Positions 4,250-10,698 of a stretch of DNA of 12,437 nucleotides are shown piece after piece (position 1 is the first letter of the stretch; every line of letters starts with the position of its first letter). Under the pieces are notes generated by a model. The model saw nothing but the letters and a program-made list of their open reading frames with translations. It was not told where the DNA came from and searched no databases. The stretch is from a virus (lineage: Duplodnaviria; Heunggongvirae; Uroviricota; Caudoviricetes). A program made the translations under genes and the position numbers. Location: IMG/VR virus record IMGVR_UViG_2778261632_000004; one strand, given 5' to 3'.

Positions 4250-4426
4250 ATGGCTAAACAGAAGTGTACCTGGTTATTTGCGGCGATCAACCGCAGTCAA
4301 CGTAATGCCCGTCCGGTGATGTTAAGGATCACCGCAGATAACGAGCGATCAGCGCGGCGCAGACTTGCCCCGGACTATGTACTGAGCTTTGCCGGGCGCA
4401 TTCCCTGCGGAGGTGAACATGCGTAA
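4250..4426 (+). CDS. Small protein resembling Icd-like/Kil-type host cell-division inhibitors of P4-like elements (58 aa)
   Basis: Start chosen at the ATG at 4250, preceded by GAGGT SD. Sequence MAKQKCTWLFAAINRSQRNARPVMLRITADNERSARRRLAPDYVLSFAGRIP resembles, from memory, proteins annotated as Icd-like in P4-like islands. First gene of the operon ending in the primase, in the position of P4 kil. Confidence 0.55.
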   Translation: MAKQKCTWLFAAINRSQRNARPVMLRITADNERSARRRLAPDYVLSFAGRIPCGGEHA

Positions 4427-5094: not shown

Positions 5095-5474
5095 ACCAGC
5101 CGCAGGTTTCCATTTTCCCGGCAGAAATGACCACCGCGCTTTACCGGCGGGCTATTGCTTCAGCATGGCGGCAGAAAATGCTGAACGAAACTGGCAATGA
5201 TCAGTATGGTCCGCACAGCCTGACGGTGGAGCGTATTGAAATGGCCATTGCGCTGCATATCGAGTGCGCACTGATTAACGAGTACGGCGAAGCACAGGGC
5301 GCCGCTGCCGCGCTGGCACTGCTAACTGACATGCTGGAGCCGTCACTGCTGACCGCGCCGCCGGTACTGACCGCGCGCGGTTGTGAAGTAATGGCGGAGA
5401 TGTACCGCACGCTTCCGGCGGCCTTTGATGTCTGCTGCAGTACCGGTGTGACGTTGTATCAGGGGGAAGTATGA
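5091..5474 (+). CDS. Hypothetical protein (127 aa) immediately upstream of the primase
   Basis: Strong SD GAAGGAGGTG; ATGA overlaps at both its start and its end, coupling it to the flanking genes. Confidence 0.65.
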   Translation: MNQPQVSIFPAEMTTALYRRAIASAWRQKMLNETGNDQYGPHSLTVERIEMAIALHIECALINEYGEAQGAAAALALLTDMLEPSLLTAPPVLTARGCEVMAEMYRTLPAAFDVCCSTGVTLYQGEV

Positions 5475-8143
5475 CAATACAGACGGTTACGCAGATTTCA
5501 GCCGCCGCACGGGGGAAATGGCCCGTTATTCTGCAGATGCTGCGTATTGATGTACCTGAAAACGGCAGGCATGGTCCCTGCCCGAAATGTGGGGGCAAGG
5601 ATCGTTTTCGCCTTGATGACCTTGACGGGCGCGGGACGTGGATCTGCAGCCAGTGTGGCAATGGTGACGGTCTGGATCTGGTTAAGCTCGTAACCGGTTA
5701 CAGCGTCAGAAAGGCTGCGCAGGAGGTGGCGCAGGTGCTTAATGTGCCGGATGTGCAGGAACTGCCTGTTAAGCCTGCCAGACAAAAAGCCCCTAAACGC
5801 GACATGGGTCTTACCGTGGCGGCGCTGATGAAAGAGAGCCACACGGGAGAAAGCGCCTATCTGACAGGAAAAGGGTTCGCCGGATACCCGGCCTCTCTGA
5901 CCGGAAGCGTGCAGCATATCAGCGGTAAGGATTTTCCTGCCGGTTCCCTGCTGTTACCACTCACGACCAACACCGGAGCCGTGACCGGTGCACAGCTTAT
6001 CGCCCCGACGGGTGAAAAAAGCATACTGCCCGGCAGCACGATGAAAGGCGCGTTTGTGTCGCTCAGCCCGTTACCGTCTGAACCACCGATACAGGTGGTG
6101 ATTACCGAAGGTTACGCTACGGCGCTGACGGTAAGCCAGCTCACTGCCGGATGCGTAGTGGCTGCCATATCTGCGGGCAACCTGCCCAATGTGGCGCAGT
6201 CGCTGCGGGCACGCTGGCCTGAGGTAAAAATTATCATCGCCGGTGATAACGATTTTCAGGATGGGGAGGAGAATCCCGGCAGAGCCTTTGCTGAACGGGC
6301 GGCAAAAGTTGTTGGCGGCTGGATGACGCTGCCACCAGGAGAGATTAAGGCTGACTGGAATGACTTTCATCGGGAGCACGGTATTACCCGTGCCCGTGAA
6401 GCCTTTCGCAACGGTCTGGTACTGTGCGGGGAAGGCCGCACGCAACTGCCGCACGGGTTCCGTCTTACCCAGGAATATCTCTGGTATGAAAAGCAGGTAC
6501 AGCGCAACGGTGAGACGGAGATCCAGAACGTCAAAATATGCAGCCCGCTGCGCGTGACGGCAATCACCTGCGATGCCGATGGCGGTAACTTCGGACGACT
6601 GCTGGAATGGGAAGATACGTGGGGTGAGCGTCGCCGCTGGGCGATGCCGATGGAAATGCTGAGCGGCAGTGGTGAGGAACTGCGCCGGGTACTGCTGGTT
6701 AACGGGCTGTCTTATATCAGCACCACCGGTGAGGCACGCGCACGCCTGATGGAATATATCTCACTGTGTAAACCGGAACGCCGCGTGACCTGCGTCAGCC
6801 GTACTGGCTGGCATGGTCAGGTTTACGTCCTGCAGGATGAGGTCAGCGGTGAAGGTGCAGAGGGTGTCATTCTCCAGACCACTTCCGTGCAGGGGCGTGA
6901 TTTCCGCGTGTCGGGCACAACAGAGGAATGGCGGGAGAACGTATCCCGCTACTGTACCGGCAACTCCCGCGTGGCATTTGCTGTCAGCCTGGCCTTTGCT
7001 GCACCACTGTTACGGCTGGTTGGTATGGACGGCGGCGGCTACCACCTCAAAGGGGAATCGACAGACGGTAAGACCACCACCATGAAAGCGGCAACCTCCG
7101 TCTGCGGCGGGCCTGACTACTGGCAGACATGGCGGGCCACCGGCAACGCGCTGGAGGGATGCGCCAGCCGCCGCAACGATGCCGCCATGATGCTTGATGA
7201 GATCCGGGAAGTTGACGGACGCGAGGCAGGCAATATCGCCTACATGCTGGCAAACGGTCAGGGCAAGGGCCGTGCCGGTACGGACGGTGAGCTGCGTACC
7301 CGTAAGCAGTGGCGCCTGTTGTTCTTTTCAACTGGCGAGTTGTCTCTGACCGAACATGCGGCAAAGGCCGGTGAGCGTACTTTTGCCGGGATGGAAGTCA
7401 GGATGATCCAGATCCCCAGCGATTCCGGGAAATTTGGCGTTTTTGAGGAGCTGCACGGCTTCGACAGCGGCAAGGCTCTGGCAGAGCATCTTGAATGGGC
7501 CACGTCCTGCTACTACGGTTCGCCGTTCCGGGAGTGGCTGAAAGCACTGACCGCTGATCTTAACGGACTAACGGCACAGGCAAAATCGCTGATGAAGGAA
7601 TATGCTGCCGCCCTGACTCCGAAAGATGCAGGCAACCAGGTGGGCCGGGCTGTGAATCGCTTTGCACTGGTGGCGATGGCGGGTGAACTGGCAACCCGTC
7701 TGGGTATCACCGGCTGGCCTGAGGGTGAAGCACTGCGGGCAACCCGCGTCTGCCTGAACGCATGGCTGAAAGATCGCGGGCACACCGCCAATCAGGAAGA
7801 TATTGCCGCACTGGAGCAGGTTCGTAGTTTCTTTACCGCGAATCAGTACAGCCGCTTTGCAGACTGGTATGACGAGCGCAACCGCCCCGGCAATATGGTG
7901 GGCTGGCGCAGGGTGGAGAAAGGCAGTACCGCGCAGGGCACGGAAGCTGTCACTACGTTCTATGTCATGCCGTCCGGCTGGAAAGAAATCTGCAGGGGAT
8001 TTGACCCGCGCAAGGTGGCTCGTCTGTGCGCAGATCGTGGATACCTGCTGCCCTCCACTGATGGCAAACTCCAGACAACCATTCGCCCGCCAGAGATGAA
8101 TCCCCGCAGGCTCTATGTCTTCAACAGCGAGGTGCCGGGTTAA
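5471..8143 (+). CDS. P4 alpha-like primase-helicase: N-terminal zinc ribbon, toprim primase domain, C-terminal P-loop NTPase (DUF927-type)
   Basis: 890 aa. Cys4 zinc-binding motif CPKCGG...CSQCG. Toprim signature residues in VVITEGYATAL (E) and IIIAGDNDF (DxD). Walker A GESTDGKTT and Walker B-like MMLDEI. Confidence 0.9.
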   Translation: MTIQTVTQISAAARGKWPVILQMLRIDVPENGRHGPCPKCGGKDRFRLDDLDGRGTWICSQCGNGDGLDLVKLVTGYSVRKAAQEVAQVLNVPDVQELPVKPARQKAPKRDMGLTVAALMKESHTGESAYLTGKGFAGYPASLTGSVQHISGKDFPAGSLLLPLTTNTGAVTGAQLIAPTGEKSILPGSTMKGAFVSLSPLPSEPPIQVVITEGYATALTVSQLTAGCVVAAISAGNLPNVAQSLRARWPEVKIIIAGDNDFQDGEENPGRAFAERAAKVVGGWMTLPPGEIKADWNDFHREHGITRAREAFRNGLVLCGEGRTQLPHGFRLTQEYLWYEKQVQRNGETEIQNVKICSPLRVTAITCDADGGNFGRLLEWEDTWGERRRWAMPMEMLSGSGEELRRVLLVNGLSYISTTGEARARLMEYISLCKPERRVTCVSRTGWHGQVYVLQDEVSGEGAEGVILQTTSVQGRDFRVSGTTEEWRENVSRYCTGNSRVAFAVSLAFAAPLLRLVGMDGGGYHLKGESTDGKTTTMKAATSVCGGPDYWQTWRATGNALEGCASRRNDAAMMLDEIREVDGREAGNIAYMLANGQGKGRAGTDGELRTRKQWRLLFFSTGELSLTEHAAKAGERTFAGMEVRMIQIPSDSGKFGVFEELHGFDSGKALAEHLEWATSCYYGSPFREWLKALTADLNGLTAQAKSLMKEYAAALTPKDAGNQVGRAVNRFALVAMAGELATRLGITGWPEGEALRATRVCLNAWLKDRGHTANQEDIAALEQVRSFFTANQYSRFADWYDERNRPGNMVGWRRVEKGSTAQGTEAVTTFYVMPSGWKEICRGFDPRKVARLCADRGYLLPSTDGKLQTTIRPPEMNPRRLYVFNSEVPG

Positions 8144-8170
8144 GGCTTTGCGTGAGTCTTATTTATTAAG

Positions 8171-8365
8171 GGTAACAGGTGAAACAGGTGGAACAACCGT
8201 ATTTTACAGGGCTGAACCTGTTCCACCTTCTGAAATAGTGAGGTGGAACAGATGTAACGCCAGCCAATCCGCTGTTCCACCTTGTTACCCGCGATGTTCC
8301 ACCGGTGCAGTGTATATAAGTGCTTTATAAAACAAAGCTGTAACACATGTTTCACCTGTTCCACC
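8171..8365. repeat. Iteron cluster: at least 8 copies of the 9-mer TGTTCCACC/GGTGGAACA (variant TGTTTCACC) in both orientations, plus an AT-rich tract; candidate ori/crr-like replication site
   Basis: Copies at 8178..8186 (variant), 8187..8195, 8219..8227, 8242..8250, 8273..8281, 8295..8303, 8348..8356 (variant), 8357..8365; degenerate GGTAACA/TGTTACC at 8171..8177 and 8283..8289. Arranged as inverted pairs and mirrored tandem pairs. AT-rich tract at 8311..8337. The motif is one base longer than the P4 type I iteron TGTTCACC bound by the alpha protein. Confidence 0.6.
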
Positions 8366-8453
8366 GCATCAGGGACATAAAGCAGACTGAAACTGAGGGC
8401 ATTTTTATCTGGCTGGCTTTCATAGCCACGTCTGAATAACCGCAAGCGCCCGT

Positions 8454-8509
8454 TGTGCCAGCCACCACACACTGAGCACCGATAGTGTGCTTGTGTCAGC
8501 CACGACACA
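8454..8509 (+). promoter_or_regulatory. Candidate Ogr/Delta-dependent late promoter upstream of sid (two TGT-N12-ACA dyads)
   Basis: TGT(8454..8456)-N12-ACA(8469..8471) and TGT(8492..8494)-N12-ACA(8507..8509), within 90 bp upstream of the Sid-like start codon. TGT-N12-ACA is the recognition pattern of P2 Ogr / P4 Delta activators. No good -35, as is typical of activator-dependent late promoters. Confidence 0.35.
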
Positions 8510-8543
8510 ATTGACGTAACGAACCAACCCGACAGGAGAAGCC

Positions 8544-9287
8544 ATGAACAACACCGCAGTGAATAACAACCTTTCCACTTTTCCGGCTGTAACGCAGCGG
8601 GCACTGGAAACCATGAACACAGCCAGAAACGCATGGCTTGAAGCACGTCGTCAGCAGAAAGCGGCAGCGGATAATATTGCGACAATCCGCCAGCGTCGCG
8701 CTGAGATGGAAGCCACGACGAACACACTGAATGAGGAGTGGCGCACGCTGTTTCGTGAAAGTCAGGGCGTGGTTTCAAAGGAAATGAAAAAACTGCGCAC
8801 GGAAATTGCGCTGGGACGAGAAACGCTTGAGGATTTTGATGAGCTGCTGGCGGCTCAGGAAAGCGAAAATGCACTTTTGCCGCAGAAAGCTGCGGAATTA
8901 GCCGGAAAGTATATCCACGCGCATAACATTCTTGTGGATATTCGCGCAAAACAAATCTGGGAAGATTTTATGCAATCGCATGGAAAAGCGCTTATTCAGA
9001 CGCTGAGCCTGCTTAAATCCACAATGGGCCGGGAAGCCAGTGCCGTTGTGGGTGTGGTGAATTCAGTTAATGACCCGGACACAGTGCTGAAAGACTTTAT
9101 TCATAAACATATCACCAGACCGGCTCTGGCTAACGATGCGATGCCTGAACAGGACCCGGTGTTTAAACTGGCGGGAATTGCCCCGGATTATGCGGCGCGT
9201 CTGGATTTCAGTAATCAACTCTCTCCGGCAGCTATGCATAAAATTAAGGTTCGTCAGGAACTTGCTGAGAAGGAGAAAGCAGTATGA
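8544..9287 (+). CDS. Sid-like capsid size-determination (external scaffold) protein, putative
   Basis: 247 aa (P4 Sid is about 244 aa), strongly helical and charged, with a strong AGGAG SD. First gene of a sid-psu-delta-type late operon directly before Psu-like and Ogr/Delta-like genes. Assigned by size, composition and synteny only. Confidence 0.55.
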   Translation: MNNTAVNNNLSTFPAVTQRALETMNTARNAWLEARRQQKAAADNIATIRQRRAEMEATTNTLNEEWRTLFRESQGVVSKEMKKLRTEIALGRETLEDFDELLAAQESENALLPQKAAELAGKYIHAHNILVDIRAKQIWEDFMQSHGKALIQTLSLLKSTMGREASAVVGVVNSVNDPDTVLKDFIHKHITRPALANDAMPEQDPVFKLAGIAPDYAARLDFSNQLSPAAMHKIKVRQELAEKEKAV

Positions 9288-9835
9288 CGGCCCGAGGCAC
9301 GCCTGACCAGGCACTTACCAGTTTTCGGAATGCCCGTATTCTGTGGGCCGGACATAGTGAGAGCCGAAAAGCCGTTGAACAACAGATAGCATCTCTCCTC
9401 GCTGCCACAGAAAAACCAGCAGATTATGCCCGACAGCTCGAATTACTGCGGGAACGTCTGGATGTGCTGAAATGGCAAATTAACTGTGCTGCGCGCGAAT
9501 GCATTTACTCGCAGCATTTACTGATGGAAGCCTGCACAGAAGCCGCTCTCAGCAATTTTATGCAGGCGAATGGAGCAGCCCTGACATCTGCACTGGCTCC
9601 GTTCCTGAAGGGGCGCGGAGGGGTTGACGTTGCGTCCCGTATATTACGCAGTGCTCTGGTTCGCCAGCTGACAATAACACCGCCTGAAATTGCCGGGGAT
9701 TATCGTGAGATCCTGGATGAATCCGGTTTGATGCCTGACCCCGGGATGATTCGTGATTGCCAGGGCTCTTACACCCCGGCACAACATCTGCGTTTTCAGC
9801 AACGCCTGAATGACATTAACGATATACAGGAGTGA
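9284..9835 (+). CDS. Psu-like (polarity suppression / capsid decoration) protein, putative
   Basis: 183 aa (P4 Psu is about 190 aa); AAGGAG SD; ATGA overlap with the Sid-like gene. Assigned by size and synteny between Sid-like and Delta-like genes, not by a recognised motif. Confidence 0.5.
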   Translation: MTARGTPDQALTSFRNARILWAGHSESRKAVEQQIASLLAATEKPADYARQLELLRERLDVLKWQINCAARECIYSQHLLMEACTEAALSNFMQANGAALTSALAPFLKGRGGVDVASRILRSALVRQLTITPPEIAGDYREILDESGLMPDPGMIRDCQGSYTPAQHLRFQQRLNDINDIQE

Positions 9836-9840
9836 TATTA

Positions 9841-10113
9841 ATGGCACTTAAATGTCCGGAATGCGGTACAGTTGCACACGCCAGAACAGCAGCCTATGAA
9901 GCTCCGTCAGTTAAACGCTCGTGGTATCAGTGCCAGAATCTGGAATGTTCCTGCACATTTACGGCACTGGAGAGTGTGGATAAGATAATCATGAAACCCC
10001 GACGCAATGAACAGCTATCAGACAAAGCACAATCCCCGGAAAAACAACAGCAAACACTTAATCGCTATGGCTCCGCGTCAAAACTGTCAAGCCGTCAGCA
10101 GATTCCTGTCTGA
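9841..10113 (+). CDS. Ogr/Delta-family zinc-finger late-gene transcriptional activator
   Basis: CPECGTVAHARTAAYEAPSVKRSWYQCQNLECSCTFTALESV closely parallels P2 Ogr (CPLCQHAAHARTSRY...YHQCQNVNCSATFITYESV): C-x2-C...C-x4-C zinc finger. Start at the ATG at 9841 with AGGAG SD; the supplied ORF begins at an upstream GTG that overlaps the Psu-like stop. Confidence 0.85.
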   Translation: MALKCPECGTVAHARTAAYEAPSVKRSWYQCQNLECSCTFTALESVDKIIMKPRRNEQLSDKAQSPEKQQQTLNRYGSASKLSSRQQIPV

Positions 10114-10134
10114 TTAGAAAGAACGCCCACGTAA

Positions 10135-10160
10135 TCCCGGTCCAGTACCGGGATTTTTTA
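10135..10160 (+). terminator. Rho-independent terminator ending the late operon
   Basis: TCCCGG-TCCAGTA-CCGGGA hairpin followed by TTTTTTAT, 22 nt after the delta stop codon. Confidence 0.6.
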
Positions 10161-10576
10161 TCCCCTTTTCCTGGCTGGCATGAGAGCGAATGAGTGCATG
10201 TCTATGGCGCATGAAAACGCATGAGTCTTATGCACCATTTTTGACGAGAAAACCCTTGTTTGGTGGCTTCTGAGACGATTTATGAGGTGCATGAAAACCA
10301 GTCTGTTAAGCGAAGCGGGCAGGCGGGCGGGGCTGTGCGTGCCGTAGGGTAATTTCGAATAAACTGTAGCAGTGCTATTTGACGTCCAACAACTTAAACA
10401 AAACCATTTTATATCCATTAACAATGGAATCTTAATTAGATTCACGATAATAACATAGGTACATTATTTCAAAAGCAATCTAAAACACTGTATTCAACAG
10501 GGTTGTTGAACAAGTTTCACTCAAAAAAATATTTCACACAATGGAAAAAGCCTTTAATTTTAACAAGTTAATTTAT

Positions 10577-10604
10577 TTGCGTAAGTAAAAAATAAAGATA
10601 TAAT
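10577..10604 (+). promoter_or_regulatory. Putative sigma70 promoter for the cargo operon (-35 TTGCGT 10577..10582, 16-bp spacer, -10 TATAAT 10599..10604)
   Basis: Consensus -10 and near-consensus -35 in an AT-rich leader about 95 bp upstream of the first cargo gene. A perfect inverted repeat TTCAACA-GGG-TGTTGAA at about 10493..10509 lies further upstream. Confidence 0.45.
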
Positions 10605-10698
10605 CATATGTAACTTAGCGCAAAACTTAGGCATTAAAGTGTCTTAAGCAATTTTGAGTTACATTGTCAATATAACAAATTAGACATGGAGTCCTTCA

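Follow-up and report, generated by a model that had tools for sequence, protein, structure and literature searches.

A twelve-slot iteron array 3' of a primase-DUF927 replicase gene as the likely replication origin of a P4-like satellite of Escherichia coli

The replication origins of staphylococcal pathogenicity islands (SaPIs) consist of 6-12 iterons lying immediately downstream of rep, with an AT-rich region between the iteron sets, and are read by a C-terminal winged-helix domain of Rep, a protein that binds and melts this DNA independently of ATP and then loads itself, probably as two hexamers (PMC9371898). The phage-inducible chromosomal islands (PICIs) of Gram-negative hosts share this layout and, in the case of EcCICFT073, a pri-rep-ori fragment replicates experimentally (Fillol-Salom et al. 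2018, PMC6092414). As a kind of element, an iteron origin 3' of a satellite pri-rep gene is already known. Satellite P4 requires both ori and crr, which are 4.5 kb apart, with ori just 5' of sid and crr, made of two 120-bp direct repeats, just 3' of the alpha gene. Here we analyse a 12,437-bp stretch of viral DNA (IMG/VR record IMGVR_UViG_2778261632_000004; hereafter, the window) corresponding to a P4-like satellite prophage of ~11.5 kb in E. coli, in which an array of 9-bp iterons (8170-8365) follows the gene for an 890-residue replicase (5471-8143, plus strand). We consider it likely, with a probability of roughly 80%, that this array is the single replication origin of the satellite and that it is of the SaPI/PICI type rather than one half of a P4-like ori/crr pair. 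On our best reading, which draws on the sequence and on a structural model, the array would be read by the C-terminal domain of the replicase.

A search of the window for the 9-mer located exact copies of TGTTCCACC at 8219, 8273, 8295 and 8357 on the plus strand and of its complement, GGTGGAACA, at 8187 and 8242, in addition to a C-to-T variant, TGTTTCACC, at 8348 (plus) and 8178 (minus). These are the eight copies, two of them variant, that a sequence-only reading of this DNA had reported; all of them lie in 8178-8365, and the tandem pairs at either end (8178/8187 and 8348/8357, with a period of 9 bp) and the inverted pairs (8187-/8219+ with a 23-bp spacer, 8242-/8273+ with a 22-bp spacer) are also as that reading described them; the array spacers measure, in order, 23, 14, 22, 13 and 44 bp. 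The enrichment that it had proposed to check is real. When up to one mismatch is allowed, in fact, the window contains 10 matches against 2.7 +/- 1.7 expected, a count reached in 0 of 200 dinucleotide shuffles, with 8 of the 10 falling inside the 188 bp between 8178 and 8365, and neither the window nor the 24-kb E. coli locus (L001) containing the whole element has an exact copy outside the array. Three details needed correction: spacers of 14, 13 and 44 bp have to be added to those of 22-23 bp, comparison with homologous arrays recognises four degenerate copies and not two, and the AT-rich tract, which had been placed in the middle, is situated between the ninth and tenth of what are now twelve slots.

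Of these 12 slots of 9 bp, 8 hold good and 4 hold degenerate iterons, and 5 are in reverse and 7 in forward orientation. They follow a template of three reverse, one forward, two reverse and three forward copies, the AT-rich tract, and three further forward copies, with slot 1 beginning 27 bp past the replicase stop codon (8143). Slots 1-3 (8170-8195, minus strand) are a tandem triple of GGGTAACA (degenerate, 8170-8177), GGTGAAACA and GGTGGAACA, and the same triple is present in relatives at offsets 0/9/18. Slot 4 (8219-8227, plus) is a single TGTTCCACC, and slots 5-6 (8242-8259, minus) are GGTGGAACA followed by the degenerate GATGTAACG (8251-8259), a slot that reads GGTGGAACG in 8 of 11 aligned arrays carrying the same iteron class as the window (class A, see below). 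On the plus strand, slots 7-9 (8273-8303) comprise TGTTCCACC, the degenerate TGTTACCC (8283-8290) and again TGTTCCACC, while slots 10-12 (8339-8365), beyond the tract, comprise the degenerate TGTAACAC (8339-8346), TGTTTCACC and TGTTCCACC.

The AT-rich tract itself (8304-8338) has low duplex stability and contains the least stable 25-mers of the interval 8050-8600, which are also among the top 1% of the whole window. This placement of the weakest intergenic duplex between slots 9 and 10 is one of the points in favour of reading the array as an origin, with the tract as its candidate DNA-unwinding element. To the left of the tract lie nine slots, including reverse copies at 8178, 8187 and 8242 that face the opposite way to the forward copies at 8348 and 8357, which are among the three slots to its right. 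No other part of the array varies as much among class-A relatives as the tract does. No exact DnaA box is present in the array, and matches with one mismatch occur at chance level in the window (15 against 12 expected), a single one of them in the tract, at 8311-8319.

Evidence that the array belongs to the replicase gene comes from its relatives. Scanning one genome per species gave 55 loci from many Enterobacterales genera, with primases 57-99% identical to that of the window, and 51 of these had enough readable downstream sequence to be used for array statistics. An iteron array is associated with the gene in all 51, with a median of 10 recognisable iterons spanning 189 bp, and in 48 of them it begins ~25-90 bp past the stop codon. 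The remaining three (L039, L047 and L056) were considered as loci without an array, a possibility that was rejected once their arrays were located ~1.1 kb downstream, past one inserted open reading frame (ORF), intact and with their leader. In L039 this insertion (6649-7656) encodes 335 residues and lies between the replicase gene and the array; the lineage concerned is one of Klebsiella/Scandinavium/Apirhabdus, and its iterons are GTGGGAACA. The sole locus with ample downstream sequence but no array is L054, where the gene is disrupted. Another locus, L017, labelled Vagococcus sp. WN89Y, is a typical enterobacterial element (replicase 66% identical) on a contig attributed to a Firmicute, and its host label is probably the result of assembly contamination or mislabelling.

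The template is shared as well as the array. Common iteron offsets are ~0/9/18 (reverse), 51 (forward), 73/82 (reverse), 101/111 (forward) and often 133 (reverse), then the AT-rich tract, then 166/175/184 (forward). When the 11 class-A arrays were aligned, 12 of 105 slot columns varied compared to 34 of 92 columns outside the slots (p=3.7e-5), and from this difference the slots are under purifying selection; within the nine full 9-mer slots, 6 of the 9 variable columns correspond to the central fifth base. Two loci, L050 (3581-5701) and L051 (3614-5695), encode DUF927 proteins devoid of the Zn-ribbon/TOPRIM primase and are found in an AntA antirepressor context, where no Sid/Psu or Delta domain was seen among the flanking ORFs scanned; they nevertheless carry the same template, with iterons of classes A and B. 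Because the template is kept in a context that is not P4-like, it is the DUF927 module that the array accompanies, rather than sid, psu and delta, and the two loci suggest that modules have been exchanged between types of satellite.

Directly 5' of slot 1 there is a second conserved feature, the class-independent leader CGTGAGTCTTATTTATTAA (8151-8169, plus strand), consisting of CGYGAGTCTTAT (CGTGAGTCTTAT in the window) and a short A/T run, which precedes slot 1 across iteron classes. A leader motif of the GAGTCTTAT type was found in 42 of the 51 loci, and a TCTTAT variant is visible in 7 of the other 9. In duplex stability the leader ranks second lowest among the segments of the intergenic region, and it travels with the array where a gene has been inserted between array and replicase gene. 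Its possible roles include those of a host-factor site, a second unwinding element and a priming site.

The replicase combines a Zn-ribbon (aa 32-68), a TOPRIM primase (aa 209-304) and a DUF927 helicase domain (aa 330-612), all identified by Pfam, with a C-terminal domain. BLASTP aligned residues 5-316, the Zn-ribbon/TOPRIM part, to P4 alpha at 38% identity and detected no similarity to alpha past residue 316, while residues 410-640 match SaPIbov1 Rep (PDB 8tch, E=3.5e-15) and SCCmec Cch, of the staphylococcal cassette chromosome mec (PDB 5dgk, E=3e-13). Judged by these matches, the replicase is a chimera in which a P4-alpha-like Zn-ribbon/TOPRIM primase is followed by a helicase with the MCM-like DUF927 domain, of the type seen in SaPIbov1 Rep and Cch. 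We modelled its last 251 residues with AlphaFold (mean pLDDT of 78, with block means of 86-94 over aa 830-879) and obtained a helical bundle followed by a beta-beta-alpha-alpha-beta-beta unit that resembles a winged helix. This predicted domain (aa 811-890, encoded by 7901-8140, plus strand) is the proposed iteron reader, and its second helix (aa 846-855), which is followed by wing strands at aa 869-871 and 879-884, is taken as the putative recognition helix. A Foldseek search with the whole 251-residue model returned 8tch and 5dgk as its only significant matches.

These results change the ground on which the array is assigned to its protein. The sequence-only reading had regarded it as the cognate binding array of the primase encoded upstream, and as a likely replication origin or crr analogue, on the strength of the iteron binding known for P4 alpha. 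The assignment and the likely origin role now have good comparative support, in the 51 of 51 loci and in the co-variation described below, while the argument from alpha is lost, as the two proteins share only their N-terminal primase and the D5_N, DUF5906 and Pox_D5 domains that Pfam identifies in alpha are all missing from the replicase, which has DUF927 instead. Homology of the replicase C-terminus to the alpha origin-binding domain was also sought and rejected, with nothing found by BLASTP, by Pfam at E up to 10, by hhalign (probability of 0.2%) or among the top 50 Foldseek matches, even though a generic winged-helix fold may be common to both. Because the C-terminal part of the replicase is of the DUF927/Cch type and not the alpha module, the 9-mer is not to be read as a P4 iteron with one base added. 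The extra base does seem to matter for specificity, as had been suggested, since the central fifth base is the most variable position of the iteron and distinguishes classes A and B; what does not hold is the idea of a variant alpha domain behind it. A crr analogue in the sense of P4 is likewise not what is seen, as there is one array, no second cluster and no 120-bp duplication.

Set against the described systems, the element is closest in its likely origin to the SaPIs (SaPIbov1 Rep, SaPI1 Rep and the SaPI5 Pri-Rep fusion), with which it shares the position 3' of rep, short iterons in both orientations, an initiator that is itself the helicase and carries a C-terminal winged-helix domain (here a predicted one), a correspondence between iteron sequence and initiator C-terminus, and the possibility of a primase-Rep fusion. 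It differs from them in having a Gram-negative host and a P4-like background with sid, psu and delta, in iterons of 9 bp instead of 5-6 bp, in 12 fixed slots with an off-centre AT-rich tract and in a primase part that is a TOPRIM of the P4-alpha type. EcCICFT073 is also an E. coli satellite with a single direction of transcription (int, alpA, pri-rep); it has two iteron sets flanking an AT-rich region 3' of pri-rep. The iterons that we read as TGTCTACC/GGTAGACA at the place reported for its experimentally validated origin (L063 11005-11240, E. coli CFT073) have the same TGT...ACC flavour. Its replicase, however, has D5_N/DUF5906/Pox_D5 domains like the P4 alpha helicase and neither TOPRIM nor DUF927, and its late genes are lambda-like capsid genes and not sid, psu and delta. 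With P4 the element shares the satellite family (int, alpA-like, DUF5375, sid, psu, delta) and a homologous primase domain, as well as an iteron, GGTGAACA in P4, that resembles its own GGTG[G/A]AACA, and its single array fills the relative positions of both crr and ori. The helicase and origin-binding modules of P4, in contrast, have no detectable homology to those of the element, whose iterons are 9-mers with an extra central base, and the P4 type I iteron (TGTTCACC/GGTGAACA) does not occur in the array, its only copy in the window being at 4412 (minus strand). Iterons of the form TGT-(3-4 nt)-ACC are thus found in three satellite systems whose readers differ; GGTGAACA of P4, GGTAGACA of EcCICFT073 and GGTGGAACA of the element are alike despite non-homologous readers.

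Two further comparisons can be made. SCCmec Cch (DUF927, MCM-like) belongs to the same helicase family by sequence and its structure (5dgk) is matched by the modelled C-terminal domain; it differs in coming from a staphylococcal cassette and in working with a primase that has a gene of its own (PMC7581432). Iteron plasmids of the RepA, pi and TrfA types have repeated initiator-binding sites beside an AT-rich unwinding element, as is proposed for the array. Their repeats, however, are direct and of 17-22 bp, DnaA boxes are needed and the host DnaB is loaded by DnaC, whereas the element has 9-bp repeats in both orientations, an initiator that is itself a helicase, and an array lacking an exact DnaA box.

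By analogy with SaPI Rep, it is possible to propose how such an origin would fire. The winged-helix domains of the replicase subunits would bind the iterons without ATP and the AT-rich tract at 8304-8338 would melt; the DUF927 helicase, for which self-loading is suggested by that analogy, would then load itself, probably as two hexamers, the fused TOPRIM domain would prime, and, once a P2-like helper has induced the satellite, host DNA polymerase III would copy its excised circle.

If the C-terminal domain reads the iterons, the two should change together, and the relatives allow this to be looked at. At least ten iteron classes are present among the lineages, and within one array every slot carries the same class. 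Class A, that of the window, is GGTGGAACA, and the others are B (GGTGTAACA), C (GGGGTAACA), D (CTGGTAACA), E (GTGGTAACA), F (GAGGTAACA), G (GTGGATACA), H (GTGGTTACA), I (TGTAGTACA) and J (GTGGGAACA). Using protein pairs less than 12% divergent over their last 570 residues, we found that 35 of 114 substitutions fell in aa 846-890 when the members of a pair had different classes, compared to 26 of 259 when the class was the same (odds ratio 4, p=2.7e-6). Residue 870 was changed in 5 of 7 different-class contrasts and in none of 13 same-class contrasts. The positions substituted recurrently (846, 850, 861-867, 870 and 878) map to the modelled helix (aa 846-855) and to the wing, and residue 866 is a lysine with classes A-C and an arginine with all other classes.

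We tentatively propose, as a possibility that we would still hold to be somewhat doubtful, that DUF927 replicases and their 12-slot origins form an allelic series of at least ten specificities, in which a few residues of the wing and helix (~846-850 and 861-878, notably 866 and 870) re-target the protein, all slots are converted together, and the resulting compatibility groups allow more than one P4-like satellite to live in the same cell with no cross-talk. Each of the twelve slots might then pair with one of twelve winged-helix domains in a double hexamer. The species-representative set includes three genomes with two elements, and all three carry two different classes: Pantoea stewartii (L005 and L046, A+B), Enterobacter intestinihominis (L043 and L012, A+E) and Pantoea leporis (L013 and L052, B+E). 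The two P. stewartii replicases are ~96% identical over the last 570 residues despite their different iteron classes. Such pairings fit selection for origins that do not cross-react; counter to this pattern, however, a few E. coli genomes have two class-A array matches.

Several observations weigh against the interpretations offered so far. The AT-rich tract is off-centre, and the iterons that directly flank it in the window are all forward, unlike the textbook picture of a SaPI origin, where the tract has at least two iterons on either side, the two sides being opposed in direction; a reverse slot is present directly left of the tract in many relatives. The structural matches of the C-terminal model are modest (TM of 0.36-0.39 normalised to the query, with a model mean pLDDT of 78). 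A single residue discriminating class A from class B was sought and rejected, as no alignment column cleanly separates them, and L051, which shares the iteron of the window, is only 40% identical over the last 40 residues; on both accounts, any recognition code is degenerate, or else flanking bases matter. Because those last 40 residues are in general the most variable part of the protein, the clustering of substitutions at aa 846-890 could partly reflect relaxed constraint. The co-variation contrasts are also not fully independent, given that L018 was used twice and that one pair includes a frameshifted gene. Finally, our literature search found no binding or replication experiment for this element or for its DUF927-type enterobacterial relatives. 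A query with the 9-mer matched only unrelated primer sequences, and no paper was found that describes the origin, the fixed 12-slot template or the series of specificity classes of DUF927-type P4-like satellites; where DUF927 proteins do appear, in work on Gram-negative PICIs, they are grouped under a "primase" family (PMC10111431).

Among other explanations, the one that survives best is that the array is an auxiliary cis site to which the replicase binds while initiation occurs elsewhere; it might, for instance, enhance replication as crr does, serve in copy control or handcuffing, or be an operator for autoregulation. Iterons do act in copy control in many plasmids, and P4, which needs crr in addition to ori, has it directly downstream of alpha just as the array is 3' of the primase gene here. 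We nonetheless regard this as improbable, as neither the window nor the 24-kb E. coli locus has a second cluster of the 9-mer, the array holds an AT-rich, low-stability tract of its own, it shows no 120-bp duplication such as that of crr, and in the homologous SaPI and PICI systems an array in this position is the origin itself.

It is very unlikely, in our opinion, that the repeats are operators for a satellite or helper transcription factor (Delta/Ogr, AlpA or another) controlling the sid-psu-delta late operon. The array does lie upstream of the sid-like gene, and Ogr/Delta sites contain TGT or ACA, as each iteron does. The class of the iterons, however, co-varies with the C-terminus of the replicase, the template is also found 3' of DUF927 genes with neither Sid/Psu nor Delta domains among the flanking ORFs scanned (L050 and L051, above), neither sigma-70 promoters nor intrinsic terminators were detected in the array region, and a candidate activator site for the late operon is located elsewhere. 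This is a separate, conserved TGT-N12-ACA dyad, TGTGCCAGCCACCACACA (8454-8471, plus strand), which we read from the sequence ~90 bp past the array and ~75 bp upstream of the start codon of the sid-like gene. Its TGT and ACA are invariant in the 11 class-A relatives, P4 has a counterpart, TGTGTCAGGGCTGGCACA, upstream of sid, and it is of the P2/P4 late-promoter activator type. The dyad is probably part of a Delta/Ogr-activated late promoter of the sid-like operon, distinct from the array.

We see even less of a case for a packaging, partition or recombination site, such as a cos accessory sequence, arm-type integrase sites or a centromere. Centromeres, like the arm sites of terminases or integrases, do typically consist of short repeats in both orientations, but attL is 7 kb from the array, a cos-like GC-rich sequence is found elsewhere (near 10320), no partition genes were seen, and the linkage and co-variation of the array are with the helicase gene. 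That the region is instead a structured RNA, a coding sequence (ORFs 8115-8330, plus, and 8140-8949, minus) or a set of functionless repeats is hardly credible, since the two ORFs that overlap the array are mechanical ones with no Pfam match, conservation follows slots and spacers and not codons, no known RNA family in Rfam matches the array region, tandem direct copies change along with inverted ones as pairing would not require, and a point in its favour, a single-strand fold better than that of shuffled sequences (z = -4.45), is uninformative because inverted iterons yield such a score automatically.

The satellite carrying this likely origin is integrated at tRNA-Arg beside yfdC in E. coli, with an attR repeat present, and its gene order is int, a hypothetical gene, alpA-like, icd-like, DUF5375, the 890-residue replicase, the array, sid-like, psu and delta. 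Similarity to P4 at the DNA level is confined to int. Of 5,426 complete E. coli genomes, 331 have the 400-bp intergenic region that contains the array, for which RefSeq gives no annotation, and the array DNA had no match among phage records. The sid-like gene (8544-9287, plus strand; 24% identity to P4 Sid, E=7e-13) is the first of the late operon, and is followed on the same strand by psu (9284-9835, Pfam Psu match) and delta (9832-10113, Pfam Ogr_Delta match). The late-gene order of the element is sid, psu, delta (9284-10113 for the last two), whereas that of P4 is sid, delta, psu (L002 10314-11460). Delta of the element has 93 residues and one Ogr/Delta zinc finger, compared to 166 residues for P4 Delta, and RefSeq flags the gene as frameshifted in strain FAM21845.

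A conserved motif, TTTATCTGGCTGGC (8404-8417, plus strand), separates the array from the late promoter and recurs at 10166-10179, so that TTT(A/T)YCTGGCTGGC is found twice in the element, once in the gap between the array and the sid-like promoter and once past the delta terminator; P4 has a similar CCTGGCTTGCC (L002 ~9462-9474) just upstream of Psid. The window has no exact copy of the 19-nt cos of P2/P4. A cos-like run rich in GC, GGCAGGCGGGCGGGGCTGTGCG, lies at ~10300-10335, past the delta terminator and within the 586-bp gap 10114-10698, and the cos type of the helper may differ from that of P2.

P4-like satellites are present in a large share of Enterobacterales genomes, and replication has been studied only for P4 itself. 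Our analysis gives exact coordinates to a cis element without annotation, and describes a widespread subgroup, of which this allele alone is found in ~6% of complete E. coli genomes, where a P4-type primase is fused to a helicase of the SaPI Rep/Cch type and coupled to what is likely to be one PICI-style origin. The replication modules of P4, PICIs and SaPIs are hereby linked as exchangeable parts, and the iteron classes provide a natural experiment on joint changes of specificity in a winged-helix initiator and the iterons that it would read, with a bearing on satellite incompatibility, on the design of orthogonal replicons and on the annotation of origins in satellites.

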